This document shows, piece by piece, positions 1 to 60,538 of a stretch of DNA of 64,000 nucleotides (within the stretch, counting starts at the first letter, position 1; every line of letters starts with the position of its first letter). Made by a program: the position numbers and the translations under genes. The notes under the pieces were generated by a model. The model saw nothing but the letters and a program-made list of their open reading frames with translations, was not told the DNA's origin and made no database searches. The DNA is taken from the NCBI RefSeq assembly GCF_000143415.4, contig NW_003314265.1:1446446-1510445 (forward strand), in the 5' to 3' direction. The DNA is from Selaginella moellendorffii (taxonomy: Eukaryota; Plantae; Lycopodiophyta).

Positions 1-2521
1 CCTCCGAGGGACGCTCGGAGGTAGCTAATGGTGCAGCGGCTAGGTGAACCAAGGACTATAGAATTTGTTCAAGGTAGCCAAAGCACCGATGAGGTACTTC
101 GACAAGTGAGAGTCGAAGTAGGGACATGGAAAGTAGACATGGATTTCACCATGTTGGACATGGTGGGATTTGACGTGATCTTCGGAATGGATTGGTTCAA
201 TCGGTTCGTGGTAGCCCTGCATGGATAAGGTAGGAACCTTGTGGTACTGGCGAATGCCCAAGGAAGAAGATCTAGGGTGGAGGCTCAGGATCTAAAGGTA
301 GGGCAAAGCAAGGCCAAAGATTCCTGCTTAAACTTGGTGTCCACGAGAGGACAACTCACTAAAGGAACTAAGGCAGCCTTTTTGTGCTTACTCTCGGTGA
401 AGAGTGACAAAAAGATAGGAACGGAAGAAGTACCTTTAGTGATCCAACGGGTGTTGGACCAATTCCAGGATACCATGCAGGAAGAGCTACCGGCGAGGTT
501 GCCCCCCGCACGACCGATAGAACATAAGATTGAGCTGGTTGAGGGTGCTGAGGCGATGGTTCGTCCCCCCTATCGTTTGAACGAAAAAGAACTCAAGGAG
601 CTCAAGTGCCAACTAGAGGAGTTGGTGGACAAAGGGTATGTTAGGTTGAGCAAGTCGCCGTATGGGGCACCGGTGTTATTTGTGAAAAAGAAAGATGGTT
701 CTATGCGCATGTGCATAGACTACTGGTTGCTTAACAAGTATACAAAGAAGAACAAGTACCCTTTGCCAAGAATTGAGGACCTATTCGATAGGTTGGGAAA
801 GGCAAAATACTTCTCGAGGATTGACCCAAGGTCAGGATACTACCAGATCAGGGTAGTTGAGGAAGATGTCGAGAAGACAACCTGTCAAATGAGGTATGGG
901 AGCTTTGAGTTTCTAGTGATGCCCTTTGGGCTATGCAATGCGCCGGCAACGTTTTCGGCGCTGATGAACCACATCTTTGTACCCTATCTAGATCACTTCG
1001 TGGTCGTTTATATTGACGACATCCTGATCTATAGCGAGACACTAGAGGAGCATGTCGAACACTTGGCGAAGGTGTTTGAGAAACTAAGGGAACATAAACT
1101 GTATGCTAAAGAGAGCAAATGTGACTTTGCTCAACAAAAGGTAAAGTTTCTCGGGCATGTGGTGGGCCAGGACGGGCTCAAGGTGGACCCGGAGAAGGTC
1201 CAAGCGATCCAGGAATGGGAGCGACCATCGAATATACATGAGTTGAGGGCATTCTTGGGGCTATGCAACTACTACCGAAAGTTTATCAGACACTATTTGA
1301 GACTAGCCCTGCCCTTAACGGACCAAACAGGAAAAGGGAAGATGGTATGGACAGCGGAATGTGAGGCGGCATTCGTCCACCTCAAAGGGAAGTTGAGGAA
1401 GGCTCCCGTGTTGGCATTACCAGACTTTGGTAAGGACTTTGAGGTAGAAACAGATGCTTCGGACTTTGCGTTGGGCGCAATTTTGAAGCAAGACAACCAT
1501 CCAGTAGCGTTCTTCTCGAAAAAGTTGGACAAGGCTCAACGGAAGTGGCCTGCCCATGAGAAGGAATTGTTTGCGGTGGTAAGGGCACTCAAGGAGTGGC
1601 GACACTACCTTGGGAGACACTTCAAGGTTTACACGGACAATGTGGCAACGAAACACTTCTTGTCGCAGCCCGACCTAAGGGGAAAACAAGGTCAGTGGGC
1701 CAATGCTTTGGCCGAGTTTGATTATGAGATTCTGTACAAGCCTGGGAAGAGCAACATCGTGGCAGATGCGCTAAGTCGAAAAGTGAGCTTGAGGTTGGCG
1801 ATATCCAGCACAACAACAACCTTCTGGGACGATGTGCGAACAGCATATGAGAACAATGGTCTAACACAAGAAGTGTTGCTGAGGAATCTAGAGGCACAGG
1901 AAGCTCACCAGAGAGGTGAGTTGCCAACGGAAGAGAAAACGGGCTATGTGGAATGCAACGGACTCATCTATTGCAAACAAACGAGGGTGTATGTTCCAGA
2001 AGGGGAACTAAAGAAGGTAGCCTTAGAAGAGTGTCATGACGGACCTCTTGCGGGACACGGCAGAGTGCCTAAGACGATGGGCTTATTCAAGAGGAAGTAC
2101 CATTGGCCAGATATGGCTAAGGACCTCCAAGACTATGTAAAGACATATCCAACATGTCAGCAGGTCAAAGCCGTGACTAAGGCTAGTGGGGGCTTGTTGC
2201 AAAGCATCCCAATTCTAGATCGTCCATGGAAATGTCTTATGATGGACTTCATCACGGGACTCCCCCCAAGCGAGGGGTTTGATGCGATATTCATGGTGGT
2301 GGACCGATTTTCGAAAATGGCACAGTCCATACCCACCACAACGGAAGTGGATGCGGAAGGTGTGGCGAAGCTGTTCTTCGAACAAGTGGTTCGAGTGCGG
2401 GGAAGGCCGGAAGAGATCATCTCAGATCGAGATAAGATCTTCAGTAGTAGGTTCTAGAGGACTTTCCTGGAACAGTATCACACCAAGTTGAAATTTAGCA
2501 CAGCCTATCACCCACAGACAG

Positions 2522-2568
2522 GTATGGGATATTAAGTCAAGTTTGGTGGTACTAACACTTCTTGACAG
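2522..2568 (+). other. Putative 47-nt spliceosomal intron 1 in the integrase core
   Basis: GTATGG...TACTAAC...TTGACAG; removal restores HPQT-D-GQTERVNRQLEDYLRCY exactly. Confidence 0.85.
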
Positions 2569-2986
2569 ACGGACAAACGGAAAGGGTGAATAGGCAGCTG
2601 GAGGATTATTTGCGATGCTATGTCTCGGGAGACCAGACCGATTAGGTAAGTCATTTGGGACTTGCAAAAATGTGTTATAACAACTCACCACATTCGAGCA
2701 TCGGGGTGAGTCCATGGGAAGTCATCAATGGGCGAGCTATTGAAGGTCCTGTGGAACTTGGTGTGGCCGAGTATCATGGAGAGTTACCCGTAGTGGAGGC
2801 ATTCACGGCGAAAAGACTCAACATTTAGAATCTAGTGAGGGATTCCTTGGAACGAGCTCAACAAAGGCAAACTAAGTACGCGAACCAGAAGCGCCGGGAT
2901 GTAGAGTTCCAAGCTGGGGAGAAGGTGTGGCTGAACACCAAGAACCTCAGGCTACCAAGTGGGATCAGCCAGAAGTTGACCCAAAA

Positions 2987-3038
2987 GTAAAAATGCATGT
3001 ATTCCTGTAAATGAATTGATCTTGAGTTCCTTAAGCAG
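2987..3038 (+). other. Putative 52-nt spliceosomal intron 2 just before the GPY/F motif
   Basis: GTAAAA...TTAAGCAG, AT-rich; removal restores KLTQ-K-FAGPYEI exactly. Confidence 0.85.
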
Positions 3039-3801
3039 GTTCGCGGGGCCTTACGAGATTGAGGCTCGAATCAGTAAAGTGGCTTACCGACTCCGACTTC
3101 CTCGAGAGATGGAGAAGATGCATCCCGTGTTCCACGTGAACTTACTCAAGCCATATTTTGAGGATCCGCTTCACAAGGACCAAGTAAGACCTTTACCTGA
3201 GGTTATCCAAGGGGAAGAGGAATACGAAGTCGAAGCCATCCTCAATGCGCGCAAGAGCAAGCGACAAGGACGCGAGGTGAGAGAGTTCCATGTGAAGTGG
3301 AAAGGATTTCCACACTGCGAAACAACATGGGATCGAAGGAGAACCTAGCGAACGCGCGAGATCTAGTGGAGGAATTTCTGCAAGGCAGAACTCTATGTAC
3401 TTATGCAAAGTTCAATTAAAAGTATCAATTTAAGAAGTTGAGCAATGGCATATGTTGGGACCCGAAGGCGCGCCGAAGGTAAGCTAATTAGCATGGGTTA
3501 ACTAGGTCGACTAGGCGTAGGGAGCTACGCCCGACTCCCTGCGGGGATGTCGAATCCGTAGACGTATTCTACGGAGGTTGGGTTCGAGTCCCAACCCCTT
3601 AGTAAAGCAAGGCTGGGTTCAAGTCCCGACCCCATACTAGGGCGTCGTGAGGTGAGGAGTATAGGGACACCTATATTCCGTTGTAATGGGCTCTTGGCCG
3701 GGGAGGCTAACTTGATGCCCTCGGAGACATGGTCAACAAGTCGTAGGATAAAAAAGAGACATTCGATGTGAGCATCGAACTTCTTCTATGGGTGGTGGAG
3801 T

Positions 3802-4938
3802 TGTAAGGAACCAACTCGCCGAGGTGTCGTAGGCTAAAGGAGCCCTGAAAGCATAACCAAAATGATAAAGAGTTCATCGAATTGGACCAAGTCTAAGATT
3901 GAGTCCAAGACCGACTCTAAGACCAAGTTCGAGATAGAGTCCGGAATCGAGTCCGAGACCGACTCGGAGACCGAGTTCGAAACCGAGTTCGAGACGGAGT
4001 CCGAGATCCGAAATCGGGTCCGAGACTGAGTCCGAGGTTGAGTCCGAGGTCGAGTCCGTGATCGGGTCCGAGATCGAGTCCGAGACTGAATCCGAAGTCG
4101 GATCCGAGATCGAGTCCGAGATCGAGCCAGAGACTAAGTCCGAGTACTAATACGAGTCAAGGGGTGAAAGCCCAAAGCGTGCATCGCCCAGAGGAGAGGG
4201 GGGCTGCAGGAGGTTCCAAAAGTATAGTAAGGATAGTGAGGTCCAGGAACCAGTTTTGAAGGAACTCTCCAGTGGGGCTTCCAAACTGACATGAGGTTGG
4301 GACTGGGACCGAGGGGCCTTGGGTGGGAATGAGCATGGCCTTGGTTGGTGCCGGAGGGACCATCCAAGGAAGTGCTCAAGAGCAGCTCCCACTCCCGAAA
4401 GGAAAACCGACTGCGGTGCTCCCGGCTCATGTGGAGTGGTGCCCCACTTGAGTACCATGCGGCTCATTGGTCCTCGCCCTTCCTAGGGGCTTGGACCTTC
4501 CCTTCGGGATGGAAGTGGGGGGGTAGAGGTACCCATACCGGGCCGTTAGGCCACGGTGTTTCGCCCCGGCGTCCCGAAGCAAGTGTTGCACCCAAGACTT
4601 GGGATTTAGAGGGTCCCATGATCAAGTCTTGTGGTACCAAGGGAAGTTAGGAACCTGGAAGCTTGGTGTGCTTGGTTGCTTGTGCTTGTGGGGAGTGTAG
4701 CCGAACCTTAAGTCCAGTCTAACTCGGGGAGGGGGATTGGGAGAGATTTGGGAATCCGTGGATGGATGGCTAACACTCCGTTGCTCGTGCAATGAGTAGC
4801 TGAAACCAAGTAGGACCAAGTACGAACTGGTACCATAGGCGGGAACCTTGGTAAGGGAACTTAGCAAAAGCCAAGGCAGTGTTGGACGGATAGACGAGGT
4901 AAGCTGGCAAATTGGAAAGGAAAAATTTGTGGCTTACA
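3802..4938 (+). repeat. 3' LTR of chromovirus A, containing a degenerate GAGTCC/GAGACC tandem array (~3890-4145)
   Basis: TGTAAG...CTTACA inverted termini directly after the PPT; its 3' ~370 nt is re-found, diverged, at 4939-5308. Confidence 0.85.
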
Positions 4939-6110
4939 TTCCCCTCTAGAGTCCTGAAGCAAGAGATGCATCCAAAGTATGGTATTTAGAAGGTTATATC
5001 ATCAATCAAGGGATGTTATGAATTTAGAAGCTTGGTATGCTTGGCTGCTTGTGCTTATGGGGAGTGTAGCCTAACCTTAAGTCTAATTTAACCTAGGAAG
5101 AGGGATTGGGGGAAAATTTAGAAATTCATAAATAGATGGCTAACACTTTGTTGCTTTTGCAATGAATAGTTGAAACTAAGTAGAACTAAGTAAGAGCTGA
5201 TACAATAAACAAGAACCTTGGCAAAGGAACTTAACTTAAGCCAAAGTATTGGTGGTCAAATAGACAAGATAAGTTGGCAAATTGAAAAGGAAAAATTTAT
5301 AATTTACAATTTGGTATCCAATCCTTTTCCTCAGTTTTAGCAAAGGATAGAGGCAGATTGCTGGGAGATGGCTAAAACAAAGTGTAAGCAGACTAAGGCA
5401 AAAACAAAACTTCCTCCAAAGATAAAACCTTTGATCAAACAAGAAGTTATGAATGAAGAATCCTTATATGAGGAGGACACTAGTGAGGAAACTTCTCACT
5501 AGAGAATAGGAGTCCGGTGCTGAAATTTGGTCATCCAAAGCTTAATTGGACGTTTTAAAAGGATAATTGGCATAGATCAATGCCCTATTACAAACCCTTG
5601 TAAATAAACTAAAGCATGATAAAAAGTGGAAAAAAAGGCAAAAGACTACAAATGTTGGTAGTGTAAAAAGTGTGGACCCTTCGGTAGGGACTAAAGTAAA
5701 ACCGAACAAAGTTTAGCAAACTAAAGTAGAATTAATCCCTCAAGAAATTCCCAAGTATAAACTAAAGCCTTCATCTATCTTCAAGGGAGTAAATAACTAT
5801 AAGGTGGTAGAAGATTGATTTTATAATATGGAAGATTACTTCCAAGCGTTATACTTACCAAGCTAAAAAAATGTCCCATATGCAAAACCATACTTAATAG
5901 ACAATACTAAGTCTTAGTGGAGAATAACAAATGCCAATGAAAGACTAATGGCCATTTGGGAAGTGATGAAGGCAAAAATTAATGCAACTTATGTTTCTTC
6001 AAATACTACTATGCACCTAAAGGATGAGTTAAGTAGATTGAAGTAAATAGGAACCATTCAAGAGTATGTGAATGCATTTATGGCCAAAAGGATCCTTGCC
6101 ACAGACATGG

Positions 6111-9100
6111 TGTGAGACACAAAATCCCTATGCCCCAAAGTGGAGCCGAAAGGGTGCCACATGGTAATGGCTGAAGCGAAAGCCAAACGAGTGTAACATA
6201 TTTGGACTAAAAGCTCCAACTTGAAAAGGTTGAGAGTGGGAGTGGAACTCCCAACGAAATGCTCGAAGAACAAGCACGAAGTGAGCAATGAGTGAGTCTT
6301 TAGAAAAGGGACACAAGAGGACCAAAACATGACACATGGAGGAGTCTGAGATGGAGTTCGAGATGGAGGCCGAGATAGATCCGAAATGGAATCTGAGATA
6401 GACCCAAGATGGACCCGAGATGGAGTCTGAGATGGACCCGAGATGGACCCAAGATGGAGTCCGAGATGGACCCGAGATGGACCCGAGATGGAGTCCGAGA
6501 TGGAGTCCAAGATGGAGTCCGAGATGGAACCGGGATCAAGATCGAGACCGAGACCGAGTCCGAGTCCGAGGCCAGGACCGAGACCGAGTCTGAGTCTGAG
6601 TCCGAATACTAATACAGGCAGTTGGGTGAAAGCCCAAAGCGATCATCCCCCAGGGGGGGGGGGGGGGGGGGCCAAGGGGGGTTCCGGGGGTTCCCAAAGT
6701 ATAGTAGGGAGAGTGTGGGGGTTGGAGCCCAGTGGAGCCAGTTTGGCCAGGAAAGGCCAGTTTGGCCTAGGAAGGCCATACCCAGTGTTAGGTGATGAGC
6801 TGACCACTAGGAAGTCCAAGACTAAAGTGAACAAGCGAGATAGCTTGGTGAAGTGTTCAAGAGCCAGCTCTAGTTCCCCTGGGAGATCGAATGGTCGATG
6901 CTCCCAGTCCAAGTGTGGGTGGCACCACCTACTTGGATACTTGATGTGGCTCAACGGAACCTCGCTCTAAGCCCATGGCTAGAGCACCCAAAGGTGGAAG
7001 GCAAGGAGAGTACCCATGAGACTCGCGTAGGGCTACGATGTTTCGAAATGTTGTCCCAAAGGCCCAGACTGTGGAAAGGAAGAGAAGCAGTCTTTTGGGG
7101 TAGTGACCAAGGATACAGTCGTGTGGCAAGGAAGTCCCAAAGGACCGTGGGGCTTAGTGGTTAGGCCTGTGGGCCTTGATCTAGTGGCAGTGTTGGCGAA
7201 CAGGGCCATGGACAGAAAGGGACTTGGTGGGGACCGGAAAAGGGATATTGGGGAAGGCTATTCCCCATGTTTGTGGGCATCCTAAGGATGCTAAGGAGTG
7301 GATCTGAGACGATCACTCATGAATGGATGGCCCAGTCTTTGAGAGATGGGACTGTGATGGAGGTGGTGTCAGACCACTGGTGTGACCAAGGTGAATGAGC
7401 ATGGCCTTAGCGTAACGGGCTGATATGTTGGTGGTACCTTGGGGTGTTGATCATGGGATCGGACACGTGGAGCACTTGGACCAAGTGCAATGGTTGAGTG
7501 GCATGGATGTCATTCTTGGGGCTAGCAAGTCCTTAATTCCAGAATAAGATTTATGGAGGTTGTGAGTGAGACTCCTCCAAGTGGTCGGAGGTGTGGTTAA
7601 GTGACTAAAGTAGACTGGAAAATTTAGTCGCTTACAATTTGGTATCAGAGTTGTTCTTTAGTCCAACTCTTATTGGTGGCCAAATATATCACCACTTGTA
7701 TTGGCATCGGAAGGTCCTAGGATCGGACCTATCCTAGAGGAACAGCATGTCAGGAGGACATGGCTCCCCACTACAGTTCGTGTGTGAACTTGTAGGCAAT
7801 GTGGTGGATAGAAAAGGGCCAATAAGGGAACGACTTTGGGATCTTGGGAATAGTATAAGGTTTTTTCCTCAGAGAGTTGAGGGTGTGATCCAGATGAGCA
7901 TTTAACTTAGCAAACTGGTTAATGTAGTTGTGGTAAACAACTATAGTTGGGATCACAAGAAAGATAGAGACTCCAAAACAATAAAGGAGTCACAAGATTA
8001 CCCTCATATAGTTGAGGCTAGTGCTCATAAATTTGAGACCAAAATTGATGACCGTGGGAGATCAAATACGGAAGAGGACACAAATCCTTAAAATGGTAGC
8101 CAAGGCTACCTTTAATAAATGCTGGAACAACTCAAGGAGTTGGGGGTGCACTTAGAAGATGAGTTGGTATTCTCATCATATGGATAAGTAGTCCTAAGGG
8201 GCAAAGGTTAGTCCCAGAGAACAAAATCAAGTGTCAAAGTAACACTTGTAAAGATGGTCCTTATGAGTAGGGCGTGAATACATGAAATTGTATTTTAGTG
8301 AGTTAACACCTCAAAAATAGGACTTCATGGTCGTCTGATTAGCAAAGTCTAAAAAGTTGGATGACTCGAGTAGAGTCAAAGAATAATCCTAAGGGATTAA
8401 TGGAAGCATTTGGACTGAGGTGTGTTATACCCCACGAAGGATGGGGAGGATCTTACGATCCAAGCATGAGAATAGTGGGTATTTCATTGATGGTAGAATG
8501 TGCCATGCTAAAGTCGTGGGAAAGAGTTTCCCGAAAGAAAACAACTTTGACACAAAGTTGTGTGTAAACTATATGGTATAGTGCTAACGGATAGTTGGCA
8601 TAAGAGACAACTGTATTAGTTTTGACAAAAACCCTAGACACAAGTAAGAAGTGTCATAGAAGTAGGCTCGTAGAGCCTATGTGTGGAAACACCGAATATG
8701 CCAAGGCGTGCTACCTTGAAGTCAAGTTGGCGAGTTTGTGAGAATCCCTTCCAAAGGAATCCCAATGGAAATAAGAATGGCATAGCCTAAGCTGGAAGGC
8801 ATGTGGTTAGAGTGTGGTGACCCAAATAATGATGGAGGTGTGAAAGCACCAGCAATGAGTTGTAGGACTTGACAACTATGAGACAACTAAGCAAAAGGTG
8901 CAAAATAATTAGTTAAATTGTTAAAAGGTAACTATCTAAAACTTCTTATTGGGATAAGGAAATTAGATATACCCTTATGGGGGAGAAACTGCTTATGTTG
9001 CGATATAGTAAATCAATGTCGTAAAGGGAATGCTCATTGCCAAAGAAGGCCATCATTGAGACACTCAAATACTCTAAAACACTAGAAAGTGGTGTTTGGT

Positions 9101-12100
9101 GTCGTGAGGGCATTAGATAAGGCCCAAGGGACTAAGTCCCTAGCAAATGATGGATAGGAGGTGCTATCCAAACGTCCAAGGTTGTGGAGACGGGAGAAAT
9201 CCGTCTACTCAATTTGGACAAAGCCAAAAATGGGATTTTGGCAAGGTTAGTGAAGGGTATATAGAGGCCCATAAGTAGCAACGTTAATCCCGATATGTGG
9301 GATTATAAGGTAAGCATGCCCAGATATAGGAACCACTCCCTAAGCTATCGGGTAGGTTCATCCCTATGAATATTTGCTAAGACATGGTAAAAGGTGCAAA
9401 GCTATCCTCCTAATTTTGAAGAGAATAACCGAAGAAAATATATGAAGCCAAAAGGCAAGTAGTATTGGGATAGAACTGAACTATAAAAATCGAAAGGCAT
9501 AACCAACAGTGGTTATGCAAGTTGGGAGTGGAGAATCAAGGGGTGCTTGAGGATGTTGTTACTAACAACCGCGATGTCATGGAAAGTTTAAAATGTGGAA
9601 TTATCCATGTTAGACCATATGGTGAGTAAGGAGCTTGCAAAAGAGAAGCCTTAGTAAGCTAAGGAATAGAGTTCCTTGAAAGTTCCCAAAAACAATTCTA
9701 AGTAGATAAGTATCTAGAAAGCCAAGTGTAAATGGTTCCTAGAGCACGCTAAATTAGAGTGGTGCAGCAAGTGCGTGGTCTTGAAGCTGGTCATGAGGTG
9801 AGGCTATCAAGGTTGGGGAAGTAGTTCCCGAGTGTTCAAAGAGAGGGCTTTAAACAAAAGTTGATGGTTAAGGACTTTCATGCTTATGCATAAACCATGT
9901 TACGGTGGCTGGATGACTTGCTAAGTGAGATTGGCAAGTCAGGGGAACAAATCCCTTAGTTGAAGGTGCTAACTTCAAAAGGGGTGGCCCATGGGGCCGA
10001 GCATGGAGGAGTCTATGCATGATCACAGACTTGTCAAGTGAGAGGACTTGGCAGTGCGGAGGAATTAGGTTCCTAAGCTGTGATTTATAGCGCGCTTTAA
10101 GTATAAGTTAGTGCACCAGTGTGGGGAGTCACGCTAGGCATCTTGGGTGATGCCATCTGTAAATGCATATACGGAGGTTGGGTTCGAGTCCCGACCCTCT
10201 AGTGCTTGGGTTTGAGTCCCAACTCATTAGAGCGTGGTGATGGTTTGGAATATGAGGACACTCATTTTTCAGTGGTCATAGACTCTCAGTAAGGAGATTA
10301 ACTTGGGCACACCGCCAAGAAGGGGATGCCCCGAAGTTGTGATGCATGGTTAGATTGCTTAGTGTGGCTCGATATATCTAACTTAAACACTTTGGTGCTA
10401 GTAGCACTAAAGGTGTGGTGAATGAGATGGGGACACCCAATCTTAGTTGTTATGGACCCTTGGCCGGAAGGGCTGGTTTGGGTGCACCGCCAAGTGTGGG
10501 GGATGCCCCCAGGGTCATGGTGAACAACTTAAAGGTCTAGAAGACCTAATACCTATTAGCAAACCTGTTAAAGTGCCAAGGTTAAATCACTAAGTGATCT
10601 TATGGCTAAAACAAGGACAAGGTCCTTGTGAGGTTAAGGAATAAGGTTCCTAATTCAAAGTGTTGATTTGAACTATTGATGATGGTGTGGCTTGGGCAAG
10701 GGGACTAAGTGGGAAGGACACCTAAGGGAAATGAGCTATGTCAAAATGATGGCATAGTGCGTCTGAAGAAAGTAGTTTCTATAAAAGACCCATGGGAGGG
10801 TCACTAAGTTGGGCCGTGGATAAAGCCCACAATAAAAAAATGCTAATGAAATGTACTAGGGGTGAGCACCCGCTAGACTTAGCAAAGTAGAGCCCTTGCC
10901 ATGGAACCAAAAAGATACCTCGAGAATGGAGGTAGTGATCCTATGTTGCTCAGTGCAACAATCAATGGATAAAAGCAAAAGACTAGTGGCCAAGTGTGGG
11001 TCATGGAGTTCATTGGAAGGAATCCAAATGGCAAAGTTAGGCATAAAACACTAATGTGTTGGATGCTAACGGATTGTGAGAAAGGAAGTGTGCTTCCAAG
11101 GATGGATTCCCAAATGCTCCAAGTTGGCGAAAGTGGAAGCTCCAAGGGGGGGGGGGGGGGAGCGGTAAGGTAGCCAAATAATAAGGCTATGGGCACAAAT
11201 TATGACAACTGGAATTTAGTGCCAAAGGTGGCACGATATCGAAGAAAGGATGATGGTGCCCTCAAGTAAAGAACTTCAAAGGATGGGGAAGTGGAATTGC
11301 ACCATGTGCAACGTAAGGTGTCGGAGACACCTAGGAAATTGACTTTGAGAAGTCAAAATTAAAAGTTCCAAAGTGCAAAGGTTATGTCGATGGAATCTGA
11401 GACTACTCGAGAATGAGTAGTGGAATTGAGTTAGAGAAGGTGTCTCTAACGAGTTTAGTAGGAACTGAACCAATAAAAGGGAGCAAATCATCCCAGGTGG
11501 TCAAATGAGTCTTTAAGTTGGAAAGACTATACTCCTTAAAGGATGGACAAGGTATGGTGAGCTTTTGGTGTCAAACCATAGACAAATATTGGCTAGGTGC
11601 CAAGGATGGAAATGATAATACGTGCAGATGTTACTTTATAAAAGGGTTTACTGTTCGATGAGGACATCGAATTTCGTCTATGGGTGGTAGAGTTGTGAGA
11701 CACAAAATCCTTATGCCCCAAAGTGGAGCCGAAAAGGTGCCACGTGGTAGTGGCCGAAGCAAAACCCAAACGAGCGTAATACGTTTGGACTAAAAACTCC
11801 AACTTGAAAAGGTCGAGAGCGGGAGTGGAACTCCCAACAAAGTGCTCGAAGAACAAACACGAAGTGGGCAATGAGTGAGTCTCTAGAAAAGGGACACAAG
11901 AGGACCAAAACATGACATATGGAGGAGTCCGAGATGGATCTAAGATGGAGTCCAAGATGGAGTCCGAGATGGACCCGAGATGGACCTGAGATGGAGTCCA
12001 AGATGGACCCAAGATGGAGTCCGAGATGGAGTCCGAGATGGATCTGAGATGGAGTCCAAGATGGAGTATGAGATGGACCCGAGATGGACCCGAGATAGAG

Positions 12101-13442
12101 TCCGCAATGGACCCGAGATAGACCCGAGATGGACCTGAGATGGAGTCCACGATGGACCCGAGATGGAGTCCGAGATGGACCTGAGATGGACCCGAGATGG
12201 AGTCCGAGATGGACCCGAGATGGAGTCTGAGATGGACTTAAGATGGACCCGAGATGGACCCGAGATGGAGTCCGAGATGGACCCGAAATGGAGTTCGAGA
12301 TGGACCCAAGATGGAGTCCAAGATGGAGTCTGAGATGGAATCGGGACCAAGACCGAGACCAAGACCGAGACCGAGTCCAAGTCCGAGGCCAGGACTGAGA
12401 CCAAGTCCAAGTCCGAGTCCGAGTTTGAATACTAATACAAGTAGTTGGGTGAAAGCCCAAAGTGATCGTCCCCCGGGGGGGGGGGGTTCCAAAAGTATAG
12501 TAGGGAGAGTGTGGGGGTTAGAGCCCAGTGGAGCCAGTTTGGCCAAGAAAGGCCAGTTTGGCCCAAGAAGGCCATACTTAGTGTTGGGTGATGAGTTGAC
12601 CACTGGGAAGTCTAAGACTAGAGTGAATACAGACTGACAAACCAGGTAGTTTGGTGAAGTGTTCAAGAGTCGGCTCTAGTTCCCCTGGGAGATCGAATGG
12701 TCAATGCTCCTAGTCCAAGTGTGGGTGGCACCACCTACTTGGATACCTGGTGTGGCTCAATGGAACCTCTCTCTAAGCCCATGGCTAGAGCACCCAAAGG
12801 TGAAAGGCAAGGAGAGTACCCATGAGGCTCGCATAGAGCCACGATGTTCTGAAATGTTGTCCCAAAGACCCAGACTATGGAAAGGAAGAGAAGCAATCCT
12901 TTGGGGTAGTGACCAAGGATACAGTCTTGTGGCAAGGAAGTCCCAAAGGACAGTGGGGCTTAGTGGTTAAACCTGTGGGCCTTGATCTAGTGGCAGTGTT
13001 GGTGAACAGGGCCATAGACAGAAAGGGACTTGGTGGGGACTGGAAAAGGGATATTGGGGAAGGCTATTCCCCATGTTTGTGGGCATCCTAAGGATGCTAA
13101 GGAGTGGATCTGAGACGATCACTCATGAACGGATGGCTTAGTCTTTGAGAGATGGGACTGTGATGGAGGTGGTGTCAGACCACCGGTGTGACCAAAGTGA
13201 ATGAGCATGGCCTTAGCGTAACGGGCTGATATGTTGGTGGTACCTTGGGGTGTTGATCATGGGATCGGACACGTGGAGCACTTGGACCAAGTGCAATGGT
13301 TGAGTGGCATGGATGTCATTTTTGGGGCTAGCAAGTCCCTAATTCCAGAATAAGACTTATGGAGGTTGTGAATGAGACTCTTCCAAGTGGTCGGAGGTGT
13401 GGTTAAGTGACTAAAGTAGGATGGAAAATTTAGCCGCTTACG
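6111..13442 (+). mobile_element. Non-autonomous large LTR element (LARD-like), family N copy N1, inserted in gag of element B
   Basis: LTRs 6111-7636 and 11694-13442 (TGTGAG..CTTACA/CG); PBS TGGTATCAGAG at 7640; PPT before 11694; TSD CATGG/AATGG; ~4.06-kb internal region without long ORFs. Confidence 0.9.
7640..7650 (+). promoter_or_regulatory. Primer-binding site complementary to the 3' end of initiator tRNA-Met
   Basis: TGGTATCAGAG, 3 nt after the LTR-terminal CA. Confidence 0.85.
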
Positions 13443-16400
13443 AATGGGTGATATAAATGCATTCCATGCTTTTATATAAGGTTTACAGACCTAGGCTTGG
13501 GGCAAGTTGATGCATTAAAACCTAACCAACTACAAGGAAGTATTAGATGTAGCTATTAAGATGCATTTCAATAATAACTTGTAAAAAGGGAACATAATGG
13601 GATTGAAATTCATGTTTAGCAAAAGAGCCAAATCAAGGGGGATATATGGCAAAAGAAAATTTAGAAAGAATTTCTTTAAGAATGAATCCTCGAGGTTTTG
13701 GAAAGGTAAATCCAATGGCCAAAGAGTAATAACATAGGGGAGTCAAGCAAAATAGGACAAACCCACTAATAAAAAAACAAAGTCTACTAACAATTTAGGA
13801 AACAATATATGCTACAATTGCAATAAAGCGGGACATTTCTCAAGAGAATATCCTTACCTGAAAAAAGCCAAAGTCAATATAGTTATTAAGTCAGGTGAAA
13901 TCTAAATTGAAGTGTATAATCTAGTCCCTAACTTAAAAATACTCATTATATGAGCAACTTTGGTAGAGAGTCATTCATGACTGCTCAACAAGTATATAAA
14001 GAAGAATAAGTACCCTTTACCAAGGATTGAGGATTTATTTAATAGGTTGGGAAAGGCAAAATACTTTTCAAGAATTAATTTAAGGCAAAAAAACTAGCAA
14101 AGGAAGATATTAAGAAGACAACATGTCGAATGAGATATAGAAGCTTTGAGTTTTTGGTGATACCCTTTGGGTTGCAATGCACTGGTAATGTTCTCAACAT
14201 TGATAGACTATATTTTTGTATTTTATTTAGATCATTTCATAGTAAAACGCTAGAGGAGCATGTTGTACATTTGACAAAGGTGTTTAAGAAACTAAGAGAA
14301 TACACATTGTATGCCAAAATAAGCAAATATAACTTTGTTCAATAAAAGGTAAAGTTTCTCAAATATGTGGTGGGCAAAAAAGAGTTCAAACTCTTAAAAA
14401 GTCCAAGCAATCTAAAAATAAGAATAACCATCAAATATACATAAGTTAAAAGCATTTTTGGAGCTATGCAACTACTATCGAAAGTTTATCAAACACTATT
14501 ACCAAACTTCAATAAGGATTTTGAGGTAAAAATGGATATTTCAAACTTTGTGTTAGATGCAGATTTGAAGTAAGATAACCACCTTGTGGCATTCTTTTTG
14601 AAAAAGTTGTACAAGGCTTAGCAAAAGCTTTGTACAACTATTCAAGTCAGAGGCAATAAGCCACCTTACCAATTAAACTTGATTAAAAAGTTATACAAGG
14701 CTCAAATTGGTAAGGTGGCTTATTGCCTCTGACTTCTCTGGGAGATATAAAAGATGTATCTTGTATTCCACATAAACTTACTCAAGTTATACTTTGAAGA
14801 CCTACTTCGCAAAAACCAAGTAAGACTTTTACCCGATGTTATTTAAGAGAAGAGAGAATACAAAATCGATGTATATGCAAGAATAAGTGACAAAGATGTA
14901 AAGTGAAAGAGTTCTATATAAAATGGAAAAGAGTTCCACTTTGCAAAGTAATATAGAAACCAAAGGAGAATTTGATGAATGTGTGAGATTTAATGAAGGA
15001 ATCTTTGTAAGGTAAAACTTTATGTACTTAGACAGTTCAGTTAAAGTATTAAGCAACACCAAGATATAAATATTTTATGTTTAATAAAATAAATATTTAT
15101 CTTTTAGTAATGTAAAGTCTTTTAAATATGTTTTTCATTACACCATTAAAATATTTTTTCTTATAAAACTATGTTTTATTAAATTTTCATAAAATAGTTT
15201 TCTTTATAAATCTGAAAATAAAAAAGGTTGGATTTTAAAATAATGTATAATAATTTATATTATCTTAAAATGAAGAGTTTTAATTTGATTTTTATTGAAG
15301 TAGTGATTGTGCACTATATAAGAAATTATATTACTAATAATTGTTATAACTTATAATAAAATAAAAGGCTATACATAAAGTTTAATTTCACAACTCAAAC
15401 ATTTTTATTTATATTGTATTACTTTTATATTATCTTTTAATTTTTTATTTATAATTTTTACTTAATGTTTAAAGTAAATATTCTAAGAATTTGATATTTT
15501 TATAATATTTATGAAATTAACATCTGATTAATAATATAGTATATTACAATTTATATGCTCTCTTTAAAATAAAAATTTAAAACTCATTTACATAGTTACA
15601 AGGATTATCAAAGTCTTACAAATCTATTTTCTAAGAGTTGAATTGGTGCTAGAAAAACTAACTTCATAATTTTTTTAAAAATGATGGACTATTAGAAAAA
15701 GGCTAATCATCTAAAAAACTCTAAGACCATTTAATTATAAATTAATTATGATATTTTAAAGAGTGTTATATGAAATTAATATTTTATTATATAAATGCCT
15801 AAAATTTAACAAAATTAGACTCACTAATCAGTCATAATAATGTATATTTTGATATTTTAGGATATTCTACTATCTAATGGTTGTTATTCATTTAGATTAA
15901 TCTTGTATTTATAATTTATAAACTTGCTTAAACACTTTCTAGTATATTTTTTTTATTCTACCATCTAATGGTTGATATGCAATAAGATTAATCTTGTGTT
16001 TATAAATTATAAACATGTTTTTAATTATAAATTTTTATTTGATCAATTGGATTAATAAGTAGGAATAACACTATTATTAAAAAAACCAAGCGTTGCTAGA
16101 TGCAACACATAACAAATTATTTATTTAAATGAAGCTAGCTTGAAAGCAAATATTGTAGATTTTCTACAAGATATTTGATGAGATTATAATTCTTATATTT
16201 TTTGTTTTATTTATTAGTAATTCTTTATTGAACCATCATTTTAAATACCTTAAAAAGCTAAAGTAAGTTTATTAGTTAACACATGGTAGACTTTCTGCGA
16301 GTGTTTAGCTTGGACCTTCACTGAGCTGACTGATCTGACGACCCCCAGCTCCAAATGAAGGTAAAAGCTAAGCACCGTCTCCCGGAACGAGAGAACGAAC

Positions 16401-20097: not shown

Positions 20098-23000
20098 TCA
20101 TCGCCTCCCAACCGGTTGGAACACCCCCGAGAAGTTTGGAATCCTGTTGAGGTGCTTGAGAGACTTCTCCGCCAGCTGCCTCGACCTGTAGTTGCCATGG
20201 CGGAACGCGTCCACCAGCGAGCTGTGCACGTCGCCGCTCCCAGCGATGGTCTGAGCCGCCTCCGCGCTGCGGAGAACTCTCTCCAGGATCCACACCGATC
20301 GCTCCCTCAGCCCCTCGGTCCGGTGCTCCTGGAGGATCGCCATCACCGGCGGGATGGCCCCCGCATTGCTCAGCACCTGGACGCCTCGCTCGACGTCGCA
20401 AGGCTCCTGGATGAGCGTCGACAGCGCCTGGAGCGTCGCCTCCACGATGTCCGTGTCCCTGTGCTCCAGGCACGCCACCAGAGGATCCACGGCCCCGGCC
20501 TCGACCAAGCAAAACGTGCTTTTGGCGGAGCACCGGCCCGAGTGGACTGGACAGAGCCCCGCCGCCGGTTGCCTGCTCGGCTTCTTGAAGCAGCTGAACC
20601 ACCCGCCTGCTTGAGCCGGAGGCTCCGGAACCTCCGAGAGGTGCTTCGACTTCATGGACATGTTCTCGAGAGCTATGGCCGACCAGCGCTGGACTTCGTC
20701 CAGGGACACCGTCTGGAGCAAGGACGTGAACAGCGTGCACAGGTTGTTGTCCGTGGCAATGTTGAGCATGTCGGGGTCGTCCAAGTCGTACGTGAACCTC
20801 GCCAGAATGGTGACGAGACCCGACTGGAACGGTCCCACGTACTTCCCGGCTCCGATTCTCACCACCCCGCGCTTGAGATCGTTGATCCGGCTGAGGAGAA
20901 TGGAGACGACTCCTTCCTCCATGAGTGCCCGAGTAAGATTGTAGTCCGTGACTGGGAGGTTTGCTAAAAGCCCCGCAGCCGCTGCCATTTCCACGTTCAC
21001 TCCGCTTTGTCCCAGTAACTTGACGAGCGTCCCCAGCTGCCGAGTTGTTATTCGTAAACCGTCCGCTAGATCCTGTCCCATGTATGGAGAGAGGCAGGAC
21101 AGCAGCCTGACCGACGTAACGAGTAGCTCTTTCTGCTGCGCTTCCAGGAACTGGATGAGAGTTACCAGAGCACCGGCACTCTTGATGTGGGAGACGACGT
21201 CCGAGACACCGCGGGGCGAAGAGGCCAACCCGAGAAGAACTTGGAGAAGCTTTGCTCCTATTGCTGGACCCGTGTTGCTGATGAGAAGTAGCAAGTTGTG
21301 AACGTACTGCTCTGATGTTAACGTGTTGCCTTCGTTGTCTACTGCCACATCCTCCCAATCTGTGCATGAGTTTACTACGTTGGCCAGTACCGTGGCGGCG
21401 ACCTCTTTCAACTTTGGAACCTGACTTATTCCCGACATGAAGAGGTCCCTCAGCAACGGTGGCAGTATGCCGGCTTTAATCAACAAACAACCGTTGCTGT
21501 CAAGAGTTGAAAGCGCTCGCAAAGCTTTCAACGATACCTCTCGATAGCCAGCCTTGTTGCTCTCTAGCATCTCTATCAAAACGTTGCTTCCCGACTCAGC
21601 AAGCCTCTCCTTTCCCTCGCTGTTAAGTGCTATGTCCGCGATATAACTAGCCATTTGTATTCTCAGTTCATCCGGACCTGTGAAGACATTCAACGGAAAA
21701 TTAGAGAAAACTTCTCAAACCGGGAGCTTACCCTCTAAGAGACGTGTAATCAAGGGCTTAAGTCGTCCATTCTCCGCCATTTGCCGTACGTTCGCATCGC
21801 ACATTTCAAGGTTGTTAAGTGTGTCGTCCGCTCTTTGGGCTGACAGCACATTTTCGGACTTGCTGCTTGTCATTCCGACGAGTATCAGTATTGCTCCACT
21901 AGAAGCTCCAATTTTCTCGCATAGCGTGTATGACTTTGAGAGTTCCAGCAGCAATGACACGGCTTCTTCTCGTTCACGTGATAACTCGCGAGACAAGCAT
22001 TTGACAGCACTCCAGACAGCAGTTGTTTGCCCAATCGCTTCCTGTCGCCACTCCAAAATATTAGTATATTCTCACTTGTATAGAAGAGCTTTACCTTGAT
22101 ATCGTCATCATCCTCGGCAAGAACTCTTAAAGTCTGGAGTGCCTTGCATCGAACTTCCTCCCCATTCTTGAGACGATCCACGAGAATCGGTATCAGCCCT
22201 TCATTTCTAACTTTCGCCTTGATGTGCCGATTGCGACGACAAAGCTCCTGTATGTCCTCCATAGCCTCAATCATATCCGCTTCTGGACTTCCTGCGTCCA
22301 GCATTGGAACAGCATTTTCGATACGAGTTGACTCATTCCTGGCATGCCATTCCTCAATCGCGTTTCTTATCGCGATGCTGGCCTTCAAGTCCAGACTTTG
22401 CAGCTTCTTTGATGTCTGAGGGCAGATGGCAGGCTTCTTGTTGTCTTGGCAGTTCGCGAAAAAGGCCTCGATGGCCTTCCGCTCGTATGTTTTCCCCGTC
22501 TCGACAATCGTCACTGGATCCGACATCACTCTCCCAGTCAACGGGCAGAGAAACGCCTCGTAAGGATCCTCGTAGCGTCGCCGCTGCCGAGACTCGTGGT
22601 AGTTACCGCTGCTGCGTCCATGATGTCTCTTGACAACGTTATCAAACATGACAGCGATCAAGTTGGACATGTGAAGGTCGTCCGGCCCCTGGATGTCCTT
22701 CTTCAACAGATCAATGTGGTTCTTGAGTGCGTGCGGGTTATTCGAAAAGTCCTCCACACCAACAGTCCGCGCAATGTCCACCAGCAAGCTGTTTTGGAGG
22801 GCGAGATCACTTCGAATGCTGCTCGTCTCCCTTTCTAGAGCACGACAAATCCGGTCCTCGGACTCCTTCACCTGGAACCGTATCCGCTGCATCTCCTGCG
22901 AAAGGTTCCCGACCATCTTCTTTGTCTCGTCCGTCCCAGGCAATGACGCCACAGGAACAAGCTCCAGGCTTTTCCCCATGTCGTGAGTGACACTTTCTAG

Positions 23001-23267
23001 CTGCCTTACCACGCTTCTACAGTGCGTGAGCAAGTACATCTGGCTCTTGTTGTTACACAGGCTGATGAGATCAGTGGCGGACTCCAGATCCTTTTCAAGC
23101 ACCTGGACCAAGTCGTCATGCTTGCTCCCTTGCTGTAGCTCGAGGGCAATTGGAACCAGCTTTTCCAAGTACCCAGCCAGTTGCGAGAAGCTGTCGTGCT
23201 CGAACTTCACCTGGCGAGCAGACTGAGCTACGGTCGTCAGCTTCTCAGAAAAATGCCGCCCTGACAT
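20098..23267 (-). CDS. U-box/ARM-repeat E3 ubiquitin ligase (PUB43/PUB44-SAUL1-like), 3 exons
   Basis: U-box FLCPLTGRVMSDPV..TYERKAIE..CP; ARM repeats; C-terminal CPVHSGRCS..FCL motif; introns 22042-22094 and 21678-21731. Confidence 0.92.
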
Positions 23268-23537
23268 TGCTTCCGTCCAAAGGCAAATCCAAATCCCTGC
23301 TCGGTCCGGCCCCGAATGCGACTAAATTTCTAAGCGAAGCATTGCTGCCTCGATTCTCCTGGAAAATCCTTGCTACGCTGGGCTAGCAACAACGAATCGA
23401 GCTTCTGCTGCCGAGACACCGAGACATACCGCTCAATCCCTGGACATACCCCGCGGCATTCGCATTGGAGCGCAATGCGAGATCGTGCCTCCGACCCCTG
23501 GCGCCGCCGCCTTCGCCTTCGCATCCGTGCTGAGCGA

Positions 23538-50628: not shown

Positions 50629-52152
50629 TTATAAATGTTCCACCCAACTGTTGGCAAGCAATACCACCGCGCCACTGCCGGGTTGTCTTCCAAGAATTTG
50701 GGAACCCACCTCAGCTCCAAGCTTAAAATCTGTGTGGCTTCTGCAGGCAGCGGCAAAGCACACCCAGTCCAGAGCCTTGGCAATAAAGGGCATGGTACGC
50801 AACAGTTCCAGGGCGTCGCCGAGATAGCCAGAGCGGCCCAAGAGATCAACCATGCTCGAGTAGTGGTGCCTGCGAGGCTCCACTCCATAGTCAAAGCTCA
50901 TTGATGCCAGGAAAGTCCGGCCCTGCTTCACTCGTCCCTTCTTGCTGCAAACGCTCAGAATCGACAGGAAGCAAACATGGTCGGGATGATGCTCCATGTT
51001 TGCTGAATGAAAGAGAAAGAATGGATCGTTAGCACCATCACATCGATCTTCATGCTTATTTTGGGATGAGAAGGACGAGGAGACGGCTGCCAGCATTGAG
51101 CTCCACGACACGATGGAGCTCTCCGGCATTGCGCGGAACAAAGATTTTGCCTTTCCCAGATGCCCAAGCTGGGCATATGCCTGAAGCATCAGATTCCAGG
51201 AGCGCTGGTCACGGTCAGGCATTTCCATGAAAAACGACGTACTATCAAACACTAATCCATGTTGTGCGTACGCTGCTAACATTATGTTATAAGACGTCAA
51301 GCATTTTTTTTGCATGGAGTTAAACCATTGTCTTGCTTCGTCCAGATACCCGTTCTCGGCATATCCTCCAAGGATAGTGTTACAAGTCACCGTAGTAACG
51401 TATGGCATTTGGTTATAAACAAGCCTAGCGTTCTCAAGCTTCTTGTGACGTACGTACGCTACTATTACTGCCGTAAAAGTAAACAGGTCTCTTTGCGGAA
51501 TGATATTAAAAAGGTTCTCAGTTTCATGCAGTTCTCCTAAACGGGCATTTGCGTTAAGTATGATGTTCCAGCAAAAAAGATCACGGCATGGCATTGTATC
51601 AAAAATAAACTTTGCTTCGTTAAAATTATTAAATTGGGCGTAAGAAAGTAAAATAGCGGTCCAGGACATTAGATCATGCTCTGGCATCTCATGAAGTAAA
51701 CTCTTAGCAAGGTCAGATTGCCCTGACTGGGAATACACATAGAGCATTGCATTGCAGCAAATCACGTCAAAGTATGGCATCTCCGAGAAAATCCGGCTGG
51801 CATGGTGCGAATATCCTTCTTCCGCCGCCAATCGAAGCATCGCTGTGGCGGAGGCGAGGCTGTGCTGTGGCATCGAGTCGAAGAAACGCCGCGCCGCCTC
51901 CAAATGCCGCGCTTGGGCATAGGCGATGAGCATGAGATCCCAGGTGTAGCGATCCCTGGGCGCCACGCGATCAAACACCTCGCGCGCGCGAGCCGGATCG
52001 CCGCAGTTGCCATACATCTCAATGAGCTTGTTGAGGAGGAATGTGTCGCGGCTGGCGGCGACGCACGAGTGCAAGCACCGGGCTCGCGAGAGGGATCGGC
52101 AGTCGCGGAGGCGGTGGAGGAATTCCTGGCGGCGATCACACTCCTGGAGCAT
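50629..52152 (-). CDS. PLS-class PPR protein with a run of 31-aa (S/SS-type) motifs and a short E-like tail; no DYW domain
   Basis: Intronless 507-aa ORF; ~9 consecutive 31-aa repeats ending mostly in MP; HYSSMVDLLGRSGYL..MPF..W..ACRSH. Confidence 0.92.
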   Translation of the reverse strand: MLQECDRRQEFLHRLRDCRSLSRARCLHSCVAASRDTFLLNKLIEMYGNCGDPARAREVFDRVAPRDRYTWDLMLIAYAQARHLEAARRFFDSMPQHSLASATAMLRLAAEEGYSHHASRIFSEMPYFDVICCNAMLYVYSQSGQSDLAKSLLHEMPEHDLMSWTAILLSYAQFNNFNEAKFIFDTMPCRDLFCWNIILNANARLGELHETENLFNIIPQRDLFTFTAVIVAYVRHKKLENARLVYNQMPYVTTVTCNTILGGYAENGYLDEARQWFNSMQKKCLTSYNIMLAAYAQHGLVFDSTSFFMEMPDRDQRSWNLMLQAYAQLGHLGKAKSLFRAMPESSIVSWSSMLAAVSSSFSSQNKHEDRCDGANDPFFLFHSANMEHHPDHVCFLSILSVCSKKGRVKQGRTFLASMSFDYGVEPRRHHYSSMVDLLGRSGYLGDALELLRTMPFIAKALDWVCFAAACRSHTDFKLGAEVGSQILGRQPGSGAVVLLANSWVEHL

Positions 52153-52523
52153 CGAAATGGATGATCGATCAAAGAGGAAGAAGAAGAAGAAGAGTCATCT
52201 CAGCTACCTATCCAACGTTCGATTCCGAGCGTTGACGAGAATAAAAAATATAATGGCGAAGGAAGGCACGTCGCCGCGATGACGATGACGCTGCGTTCTT
52301 TGATTTGTTCGTCGCCAATGAAGGATGGATGGATCGTCGCGTTGCCGCGCGGCGGCACCCTGGCGGCGCCGCTCGCCGTGTCCTCGTAGCCGGTGCACTC
52401 TAAAGAATCCCTCTTTCTCTTCCCCTCCTCTTTCCTGTTCTTGCAAGAAATCTCTTTCATTTCCCGGATGCGTTCCCAGGGCGCGGTACCAAGCCGCGGC
52501 AGGAAATAGGGTTACGCCGATCG

Positions 52524-53318
52524 ATGGATCGACAGGAGAATCCCAGGTACAGTAAGAGGCTGCGAGCCAAGGCGGAGGAGAAATCCCCGGTGAAGCGCGA
52601 GCCGCCAAATGCGGATGAAATCCTCCTCCGCTCGGCGCTGGATCGGCCGGAATACCATCCGGATTTTGGGATCGTGATGAGCGCCCAGCAGCTGGACGAA
52701 TTGCGGCGCCAGATCGCCGTCTACGCCACGATCTGCCAGCAGCTGGTGGAGATGCACAAGGCGTCAATGGCGAATCCCAACGGTATGGTCTTATAGGTAC
52801 CATTTTTTTTTCCTTTTCGCTTAGCTTAGAACGAAAGAGAACTAAGGACAAAGTTTATATGATGGACAGGAACTTCTAGCTCTAGACCACCGCCGCCATC
52901 GCCGCTACCGCCGCCCGTGAAAGCCACCACTCGCCAGAGGTGGGCGCCCAGCCAGGCCCAGGTCAAGCTCCTCGAGAGCCTCTACGACGTTGGAATGGGG
53001 ACGCCACACAAGCAGCGAGTGCGAGAGATCACGGCGGAGCTCAGCCAGCTTGGGCCGGTGAACGAGTCCAACGTTTACAACTGGTTCCAGAACCGAAAGG
53101 CCAGGACGAGGAGGAGGAATCGGCAGCAGCCGAGTGCTCTGGGAGGCCTGGAGCCACAGAACTTTCCTCACAGGGAGCTCGAGGAGGTGGATTCGGAGGT
53201 GGACGCCATGGAAGGTGGTGGTGCTCGTGGGTCTCCGGGAGTGTTGAAAAGGCTCAAGCCAGAGGGCGCTGGTCCATCAACCGAGCACGCTCCACACTCC
53301 AACGCAAGTCTCCTGTGA
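52524..53318 (+). CDS. WOX13: WUSCHEL-related homeobox protein, WOX13/ancient clade; 2 exons (52524-52782, 52870-53318)
   Basis: QLDELRRQIAVYATICQQLVEMHKA motif plus homeodomain RQRWAPSQAQ..NVYNWFQNRKAR; frame-consistent GT-AG intron. Confidence 0.9.
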
Positions 53319-59124: not shown

Positions 59125-60538
59125 CACTGGCGCGCGCGCGATCTCCGATCGAGAAGCAAAGAGGGCGAAACGAATGGAATTATTGGGGATTGGAATGCTC
59201 TCTTGTGATCTTCACGGGACCAATTCCTCGCTCGCTCTCTCGCTGCCGATTCACGTGGTCAAACAAAGAGAGAGGGGTCTTCTTCTTTCAATCTGCCAAT
59301 CCTTGGCAGTGACAGGAAGAACAAAGCAATGCCATGTCTGGAGGTGAGAGAGAGAGCGTTTCGGCAGACCCAATCCACATGGACCAAGAATGAATGCGCG
59401 GGTGCACGAGCAGCCTTCGCCATCGCCCCATTAACAGGTTAAATACAACGCGCGAAATACATCCTGGCCGCCCACAGCGGGGAATCCGACGGCTCTCCCA
59501 CGAGAGGGGATCTGCACCGTCCGACCCCTCCGACGGGTAAGATTCGCGTTAACCCGGTCAGAATGATCTCGGTCGTCGGGTGTCAATCCGACGGACGTCG
59601 TTGTGGGATCCAATGGCTGGCATGCCATCCATGCATGCAGCTGCGCCCACGTCCACGTGTGCTGGCCGTGTTCGTTGGATCTCTGCCGATCGGAGGGCCC
59701 CTGACTGGTCAAAGCCCTGAAGTGAGTTTCTAGCTTGTTGCTAGGAAACCCATGGCTTGACTTGGACTGGCCACCGTAGGCAACGGGAAGGGCATATTCC
59801 ACGGGATAATCACGTCAAAGCGCGTGATCGCTTCGCGCGCATTACACTTTTGTGATCTCTCCCTGTGTTGCTCTTGGCGATTCATATCTTTTCCGCGTAA
59901 ATCTCTTGGCCACTCGAAGACGCGCGTAGAATCCCACAGGAGATGGGGTCATTGGTGAAGCTGCTAGGCAAGAAGGCGGGGAAATGTGAAGTTTCGGGGA
60001 GGGCCTGGGCAGATTCTCACGAGCGATTCTGTCCTAGCCAGATGATGCAGCAACTAAATTCAATCTCTCCTTTGGGCGGGTCCAGTCTCAACTCACAGCA
60101 CGAAATAGCTACAAGAGAGAGCATTCATTGGTATTCTTCGTTGAGATTCTTAATGGTTGGACCTTAAAGAATTGTAACATGTCTGTGTATATTTGATTGG
60201 ACAATATAAAGTTTTCTGTTTCCTGGAAGCAATGCCTTGCAAATTAGATAGTTTGGGTCTTTCACAATAGCAACAGTCCTAATATTCCCACTCAGTAATC
60301 TTACAAAACTGGATAAAAAGTCAAACTATATCTACATACAAGAAGATTTTACGAGAAGTGCTCTCATGTGTTTTGAATGAGGATTTTGCTTTCTTGAGAG
60401 CTGCCATGATAAAACACTACCATGATAATAGAGTGGCTTGCCTGTTAATAATAAACTAGAGCTTATGATACTGAGTTAGAGGCACATTAAATATATTAGT
60501 AACCTTTTAAATTAAAGTCCATCATTAGGGTTCATAGC

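Follow-up and report, generated by a model that had tools for sequence, protein, structure and literature searches.

Two introns in the integrase of a Selaginella chromovirus family and a likely division of labour between its RNAs

Loss of introns on transposition is the classic proof that a retroelement moves through an RNA intermediate. Penelope-like elements, which are not long terminal repeat (LTR) elements, keep introns in their DNA copies; the introns of the brtn genes in Boty-like elements lie in antisense orientation relative to the genomic RNA, from which they are hence never spliced; and splicing of the foamy virus pol mRNA removes gag, unlike the restoration of a split enzyme. Here we analyse a 64,000-nt stretch of the Selaginella moellendorffii genome (assembly GCF_000143415.4, contig NW_003314265.1, positions 1,446,446 to 1,510,445, forward strand; hereafter the window), in which a Pfam domain search finds the 3' portion of a Ty3/gypsy gag-pol at positions 1-3419 of the plus strand. 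Its integrase is interrupted by two short inserts, which an earlier note on this DNA had read as spliceosomal introns forming a possible splice switch.

Statements on published elements refer to the excerpts of the cited sources that we used. In Ogre elements (Ty3/gypsy, Tat), an intron lies between protease and reverse transcriptase (RT), and its splicing is required for Pol (PMC6317226). The window element resembles Ogre in that a sense-strand intron is present in genomic copies, while some of the transcripts lose it and thereby allow translation of the Pol domains downstream (PMC6317226, PMC12786077). It differs in being a chromovirus with two introns of about 50 nt, in the integrase core and the SH3 domain, and with RT and RNase H upstream of them; a single Ogre-type intron between protease and RT was not found, the open reading frame (ORF) 229-2457 being open through RT and RNase H. 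In BARE elements, capped, polyadenylated and partly spliced RNAs without R are translated, and uncapped, unspliced RNA is packaged (PMC3735527). The resemblance to BARE1 and to Arabidopsis EVD lies in this translation of spliced RNA and use of unspliced RNA as template, but in these Ty1-copia elements the spliced RNA yields Gag alone and the full polyprotein is encoded by the unspliced RNA, which is the opposite of the arrangement in the window (PMC3735527, PMC5580714). For Arabidopsis Ty3/gypsy elements the excerpt used reports that conserved splicing was not found (PMC5580714), and the part of a 2025 review that we used lists Ogre and EVADE as the only intron-bearing plant LTR elements (PMC12786077). 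In the literature searched, none of the reports describes an intron within the integrase of a retrotransposon; the search included excerpts of PMC2864245, PMC12477816 and PMC5718144, with Repbase, theses and subscription journals outside its reach. We thus regard the present case as an unrecognised and unusual gene structure in what is probably a known element, well supported at the DNA level and thinly at the RNA level.

Two inserts with the properties of introns

Both inserts begin with GT and finish with CAG, and their GC content (0.38 for the first, 0.33 for the second) compares with 0.46-0.51 in the flanks; the coordinates (Table 1), lengths and ends reported in the earlier note all hold. 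The first insert could be cut in 6 equivalent registers and the second in 3, of which one each gives GT..AG. Excision of both yields HPQTDGQTERVN and KLTQKFAGPY, with the joins HPQT-D-GQTERVN and KLTQ-K-FAGPY, so that the motifs are restored without gaps, as the earlier note states. Similarly, the alignment of a single-ORF related protein with the window breaks into three blocks, and the two intervals that separate them hold exactly 47 and 52 surplus bases. Retention brings in-frame stops at 2533-2535 (insert 1) and 2988-2990 (insert 2), again in agreement with the note. With insert 1 kept, translation ends four codons into the intron, ahead of the catalytic Glu. This residue, the Glu of GQTER and the third of the DD35E triad, is encoded in exon 2, and 35 residues separate it from the second catalytic Asp (counted from the first D of SDRD). 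The inserts are also of host-intron size, the two host introns measured in the window, both in the U-box/ARM gene, being 53 and 54 nt long.

The splice signals themselves are of uneven quality. The perfect TACTAAC branch motif described for intron 1 stands in its CTAAC core, which the family shares; its first base does not, being private decay of the window copy that differs in 99.5% of family depth. For intron 2 the window copy offers a weak branch candidate, TTGAT at 3016-3020. A CTAAT branch-type motif is present in a loose-end consensus of 10 diverged contigs. At the donor of intron 1, positions +4 and +5 (2525-2526) differ between subfamilies and the usual G at +5 is missing in 75% of depth, a weakness that would fit partial retention. 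Both inserts thus have the GT...AG ends and the branch-point motif near the 3' end of U2-type introns, if a weak one in intron 2, and both are present in DNA and missing from RNA, as seen for intron 2 in the X15 contig alone (below). Together these results support the reading of the two inserts as real introns.

The inserts are kept in genomic copies. DNA-side contigs aligning to the window at 80% likeness numbered 7389 in run X1 (DNA status guessed), 108 in X4 (which has a second organism label) and 7 in X5. All 30 bins were covered in each of the three runs, both inserts included, and none of the 12 joints listed for these 7504 contigs skips 47 or 52 bases, with joints at depth 2 or with 21-nt sides among those listed. 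One X5 contig crosses 2470-3065 ungapped, and 5019 of the 7389 X1 contigs are 90-99% alike. Depth over the insert 2 bins in X1 was 0.76 and 0.96 of the exon median. The inserts are therefore supported as family-wide, and the possibility that they are unique to the window copy, with all others intronless, did not hold in X1, X4 or X5.

On the RNA side, the sole aligned contig of X15 (RNA status guessed), 2500 nt long and 90-95% alike to the window, skips both inserts exactly. In X22, a recorded RNA-seq run, one raw read skips insert 1 at GT..AG; it makes up all the depth in its bin, so that 1/1 reads crossing intron 1 is spliced. Another X22 read runs into intron 2 unspliced. Spliced sequences, the absence of which would have spoken against introns, thus exist. 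The contig of X18 (RNA status guessed) keeps intron 1 and extends into intron 2, a retained form that may be pre-mRNA, genomic RNA or DNA. Taken together, the spliced X15 and the retained X18 contigs indicate that both forms occur in RNA-like runs. The 3 family reads of X23 were less than 90% alike, and their splice state could not be read.

The exons behind the intron 1 stop were under purifying selection in lineages carrying the introns. Among the variable sites listed, 17 are private to the window copy (at least 85% of depth differs), and 16 of these are of deamination type; they include two exon 2 stops and the first base of TACTAAC. A further 12 sites split the family (10-85% of depth), 3 of them in intron 1 and 9 in exons 2-3. 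All nine exonic family-level variants are synonymous third positions (7/7 in exon 2, 2/2 in exon 3), compared with 5/13 synonymous among the private exonic changes (Fisher p=0.006) and a neutral share of 0.22-0.34. Family-level variants number 3 in the 47 nt of intron 1 and 9 in the 582 nt of exon compared with it (p=0.053), and none of the three in intron 1 falls in GT, AG or CTAAC, so that among the sites listed the intron's interior varies and these three signals do not. The X5 and X18 contigs carry insert 1 together with several of the synonymous variants. Since this synonymous-only variation lies behind the intron 1 stop, it argues that the spliced integrase was under purifying selection in the intron-bearing lineages.

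Family identity and intron gain

The element is probably one that has already been described, and it is the intron reading of it that is new. SM1-Galahad of S. moellendorffii has hundreds of copies about 95% alike, of which, in the excerpt used, no intact copy was found (Novikov et al. 2012, PMC3350952). It was published as three separate ORFs, one of 3885 bp that ends in the core integrase and, behind it, two short ones (316 and 309 bp), the second of which contains the chromodomain; its LTRs are 1076/1146 bp in an element of 7.5 kb, and the strings 'intron' and 'splic' occur 0 times in the main text (PMC3350952). The window element has short ORFs of 318 and 308 bp, with the chromodomain in the last, an LTR of 1137 bp and a length of 7428 bp plus leader when the published ORF length is used (PMC3350952). 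It also shares an LTR above 1 kb with TG..CA ends, a size of about 7.5 kb and a high copy number at about 95% identity. The two thus agree in layout and closely in size on four measures, a comparison by sizes and not by sequence, and the window element is probably SM1-Galahad. The longest pure G run in the window LTR is 7, compared with the 11-25 bp poly-G tracts of SM1-Galahad; the window copy has heavy G-to-A decay. The same broken layout in the multi-copy consensus of SM1-Galahad gives independent support that the inserts are family-wide. Assignment to the Tcn1 clade was dropped, SM-Tcn1 having 440-bp LTRs and an unbroken pol. A sister element in the same genome, SM2-Galahad, has an intact single ORF of 1577 aa and hundreds of copies (PMC3350952).

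The comparison with related chromoviruses, which the earlier note had called for, points to a likely gain of the introns within this family. In 46 of 50 long relatives HPQ(T/S)DGQ(T/S)E is read unbroken, although protein sets are biased to open frames, and 0/120 mid-length relatives end at HPQT as the window ORF does (99 read through, and the others are without the motif or end elsewhere). Among DNA sequences, 82 related loci were compared; most belong to a single sister clade and they stem from few data sets, so that they do not count as 82 independent cases. Coverage extended to 77 of them at site 1 and to 68 at site 2, and no insert was present at either (0/77 and 0/68). Small frameshifts only were seen, in 3 loci at site 1 and 9 at site 2; as a control, the window gives +47 and +52 when put through this alignment. 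Exons 2-3 are 41-48% identical to the sister clade. In a FastTree phylogeny of 47 rows, for which 5 of 51 picked proteins lacked full cover, the element falls in a group of 23 rows with SH-like support of 96, in which the members that carry names are chromodomain Gag-Pols of angiosperms; Galadriel does not appear as a row label, and the Galadriel-related label of SM1-Galahad is that of PMC3350952. Protein searches found no close family member, the best identities being about 53% over partial or RT-RNase H-integrase stretches; the exact family DNA pattern gave 0 stretches in metagenome contigs, and a viral collection held no close relative and 2 distant loci. As the relatives lack the inserts, the introns were likely gained in the family of the window element.

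The sequence around the inserts would be compatible with gain at proto-splice sites or with repair of a staggered break. Intron 1 is bounded by a 5-nt direct repeat (2517-2521 and 2564-2568), and both ends of intron 2 (2985-2988 and 3037-3040) have an AG|GT context in 99.5% of family depth. In a comparison with introners, the two inserts resemble neither each other, nor their flanks, nor the rest of the window, and insert 1 has the 5-nt repeat. The idea that the inserts arose through tandem duplication, or one from the other, was rejected, no similarity being found (shuffle p 0.41-0.98).

A proposed division between two RNAs

We consider it probable, at roughly three in four (0.74), that this is a chromodomain Ty3/gypsy family whose two host-sized GT-AG integrase introns likely divide labour between two RNAs. 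The doubly spliced mRNA would be the sole source of complete integrase. The unspliced RNA would encode Gag, protease, RT, RNase H and an integrase without the catalytic Glu, the SH3 domain and the chromodomain, in line with the earlier note's expectation that the full protein needs both splices. It would likely also be the only RNA reverse-transcribed into new copies, with spliced RNA kept out of that step. Copies arise by reverse transcription and none was seen without introns, which suggests that spliced RNA is excluded, because intronless daughters would otherwise accumulate. By analogy, the likeliest route of exclusion would be that of BARE, with translated RNA capped, spliced and without R and a separate uncapped, unspliced RNA packaged; alternatively, a packaging signal might be lost or masked on splicing. 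A likely effect, in an element with a single ORF, would be that integrase stays at a low level compared with Gag, which fission-yeast Tf1 achieves by degrading integrase. An intronless daughter would be self-sufficient and might take over, and its absence hints at tight exclusion or at a cost.

One could also speculate further, with slightly less than even confidence, that the family rose to hundreds of copies with a template RNA incapable of encoding integrase, that two ordinary host-type introns were gained in the active site and the targeting module, and that the host spliceosome is needed for every integration, spliced RNA being barred from reverse transcription so strictly that daughters without introns do not survive. 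In that case the introns would work as a natural indicator of retrotransposition that is never set off, and splicing would determine, per particle, the amount of integrase and whether it is chromodomain-targeted.

Several points weigh against a division between two RNAs. A translated unspliced RNA has an early stop and might be degraded, and the family may be inactive now. The RNA side consists of one raw read and a single contig of X15, a run guessed to be RNA; family reads are few (9, 3 and 0 of about 9.2 million each in X22, X23 and X24, the last giving no test), and the retained form in X18 could be DNA carry-over. Contigs prove presence and not absence, so that rare intronless copies may stay hidden, and in X1 insert 1 is covered at 0.50 times the median exon depth, with the lowest exon bin at 0.62; intronless copies at half share would be expected to give a joint of very high depth in X1. 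Finally, the selection test covers 30 of 40 listed variable sites (72 in total), the 10 dropped having less than 10% of X1 depth.

The earlier note had gone beyond two RNAs and raised a possible splice switch. As a regulated switch of three states, it would have unspliced, singly spliced and doubly spliced RNA give dead, untargeted and chromatin-targeted integrase, tuned by the cell or the element. The anatomy would allow it, as intron 2 lies just before GPY/F and its retention ends translation at once, and spliced and retained forms both occur, the X22 read that enters intron 2 among them. However, no contig or read aligned has intron 1 removed and intron 2 kept, and two RNA pools need no third isoform. 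With only the doubly spliced form and a form keeping insert 1 and entering insert 2 seen, and no sign of regulation, the switch is not sustained as proposed and we think it unlikely. Less probable still is a supply of integrase, and of the apparently spliced RNA, by a few intronless master copies on which the insert-bearing majority rides. While contigs drop rare variants, the RNA status of X15 is guessed and the X1 depth over insert 1 is halved, the three DNA-side runs contain no skipping joint even though depth-2 joints are listed. Moreover, the lineages in which all variation is synonymous are ones that bear the inserts, as the contigs of X5 and X18 show for insert 1, both cuts lie exactly at GT..AG, and the 2012 survey, in the excerpt used, found no intact copy (PMC3350952).

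The inserts could instead be disabling insertions, in which case SM2-Galahad, the sister with a single ORF, would lend its integrase and splicing would be incidental. An intact sister with hundreds of copies is indeed reported from the same genome (PMC3350952), and non-coding dependants with common LTR ends are present in the window. The strongest argument against this is the purifying selection on exons 2-3 (9/9 synonymous), which moreover remain 41-48% identical to the sister clade, and chance would have to make each of two independent insertions a GT..AG intron that restores the frame exactly; we consider it very improbable. We give equally little credence to introns that were gained in one copy and spread by duplication of DNA instead of through RNA. 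This would explain intron retention without any sorting of RNAs, and target-site duplications are unreadable, the 5' end of the element lying outside the window, but the element has an LTR as well as a polypurine tract (PPT), hundreds of copies are reported (PMC3350952), and the codon-aware selection seen among subfamilies implies that a copy could not spread without a protein of its own.

Two sense-strand introns in an essential enzyme have here persisted through large amplification while the enzyme stayed under selection. The long-standing question of how LTR elements separate translated from copied RNA thereby becomes testable in natural data, where each genomic copy records a packaged RNA and each RNA read records whether that RNA was spliced. 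The case would also illustrate intron gain inside a retroelement, and it advises caution with families annotated as having no intact copy, which may be intact and spliced.

The element and its surroundings in the window

The order RT-RNase H-integrase, the C-terminal GPY/F-SH3 and chromodomain, the LTR and the PPT identify the element as a chromovirus (Table 1), with Pfam matches in exon 3 to PF24626 (E=4e-15) and PF00385 (E=2e-8). As had been noted, the window copy is itself dead: it has stops at 2455-2457, 2643-2645 and 2826-2828 and a frameshift near 3331, and the X15 contig is without all four. The two stops in exon 2 are missing from 98-99% of family depth. A canonical TATA box was not found in the decayed LTR of this copy.

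Table 1 Features of the window
Feature	Position	Strand	Remarks
Exon 1 of gag-pol	1..2521	+	Element 5' end outside window; ORF 229-2457, Pfam, tblastn
RT	~682-1161	+	Within exon 1; Pfam RVT_1
RNase H	~1348-1719	+	Within exon 1; Pfam RT_RNaseH
Integrase zinc finger	~2005-2172	+	Within exon 1; Pfam Integrase_H2C2
Integrase core up to HPQT		+	End of exon 1; first two catalytic Asp; Pfam rve
Intron 1	2522..2568	+	47 nt, GT..AG, phase 1; splits Asp codon of HPQT-D-GQTE
Branch-point-like CTAAC of intron 1	2552..2556	+	Not among the 40 variable sites listed
Exon 2	2569..2986	+	Catalytic Glu 2580-2582, remaining integrase core, GPY/F-SH3 start
Intron 2	2987..3038	+	52 nt, GT..AG, phase 2; directly before FAGPY
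Exon 3	3039..3419	+	SH3_Tf2-1 (GPY/F) ~3040-3156; chromodomain ~3223-3330 and on
PPT-like stretch	3787..3801	+	
3' LTR	3802..4938	+	1137 bp, TGTAAG...CTTACA
U-box/ARM gene	20098-23321	-	Host gene
PPR gene	50629-52194	-	Host gene
Homeodomain gene	52863-53318	+	Host gene
WRKY gene	56318-59211	-	Host gene

A second chromovirus copy, heavily decayed and AT-rich, occupies 4951-6110 and 13443-15052 on the plus strand. It retains an LTR piece, a primer-binding site (PBS) at 5310, a gag remnant (5750-6079), an RT remnant and an SH3/chromodomain remnant; its integrase core is deleted, which makes it uninformative on the introns. The two parts are split by a non-coding LTR element (6111-13442, plus strand), more copies of which lie on the minus strand at about 25900-47200. 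This element has LTRs of 1.5-1.7 kb that are about 89% alike, a Met-type PBS at 7638 and a 4-kb interior with no ORF above 106 aa and no match to the retroelement proteins compared. It resembles the chromovirus in its PPT, LTR end, 3' untranslated region motif and GAGTCC-type tandem repeat, and on these grounds is likely to be non-autonomous and to depend on the integrase of the chromovirus family.

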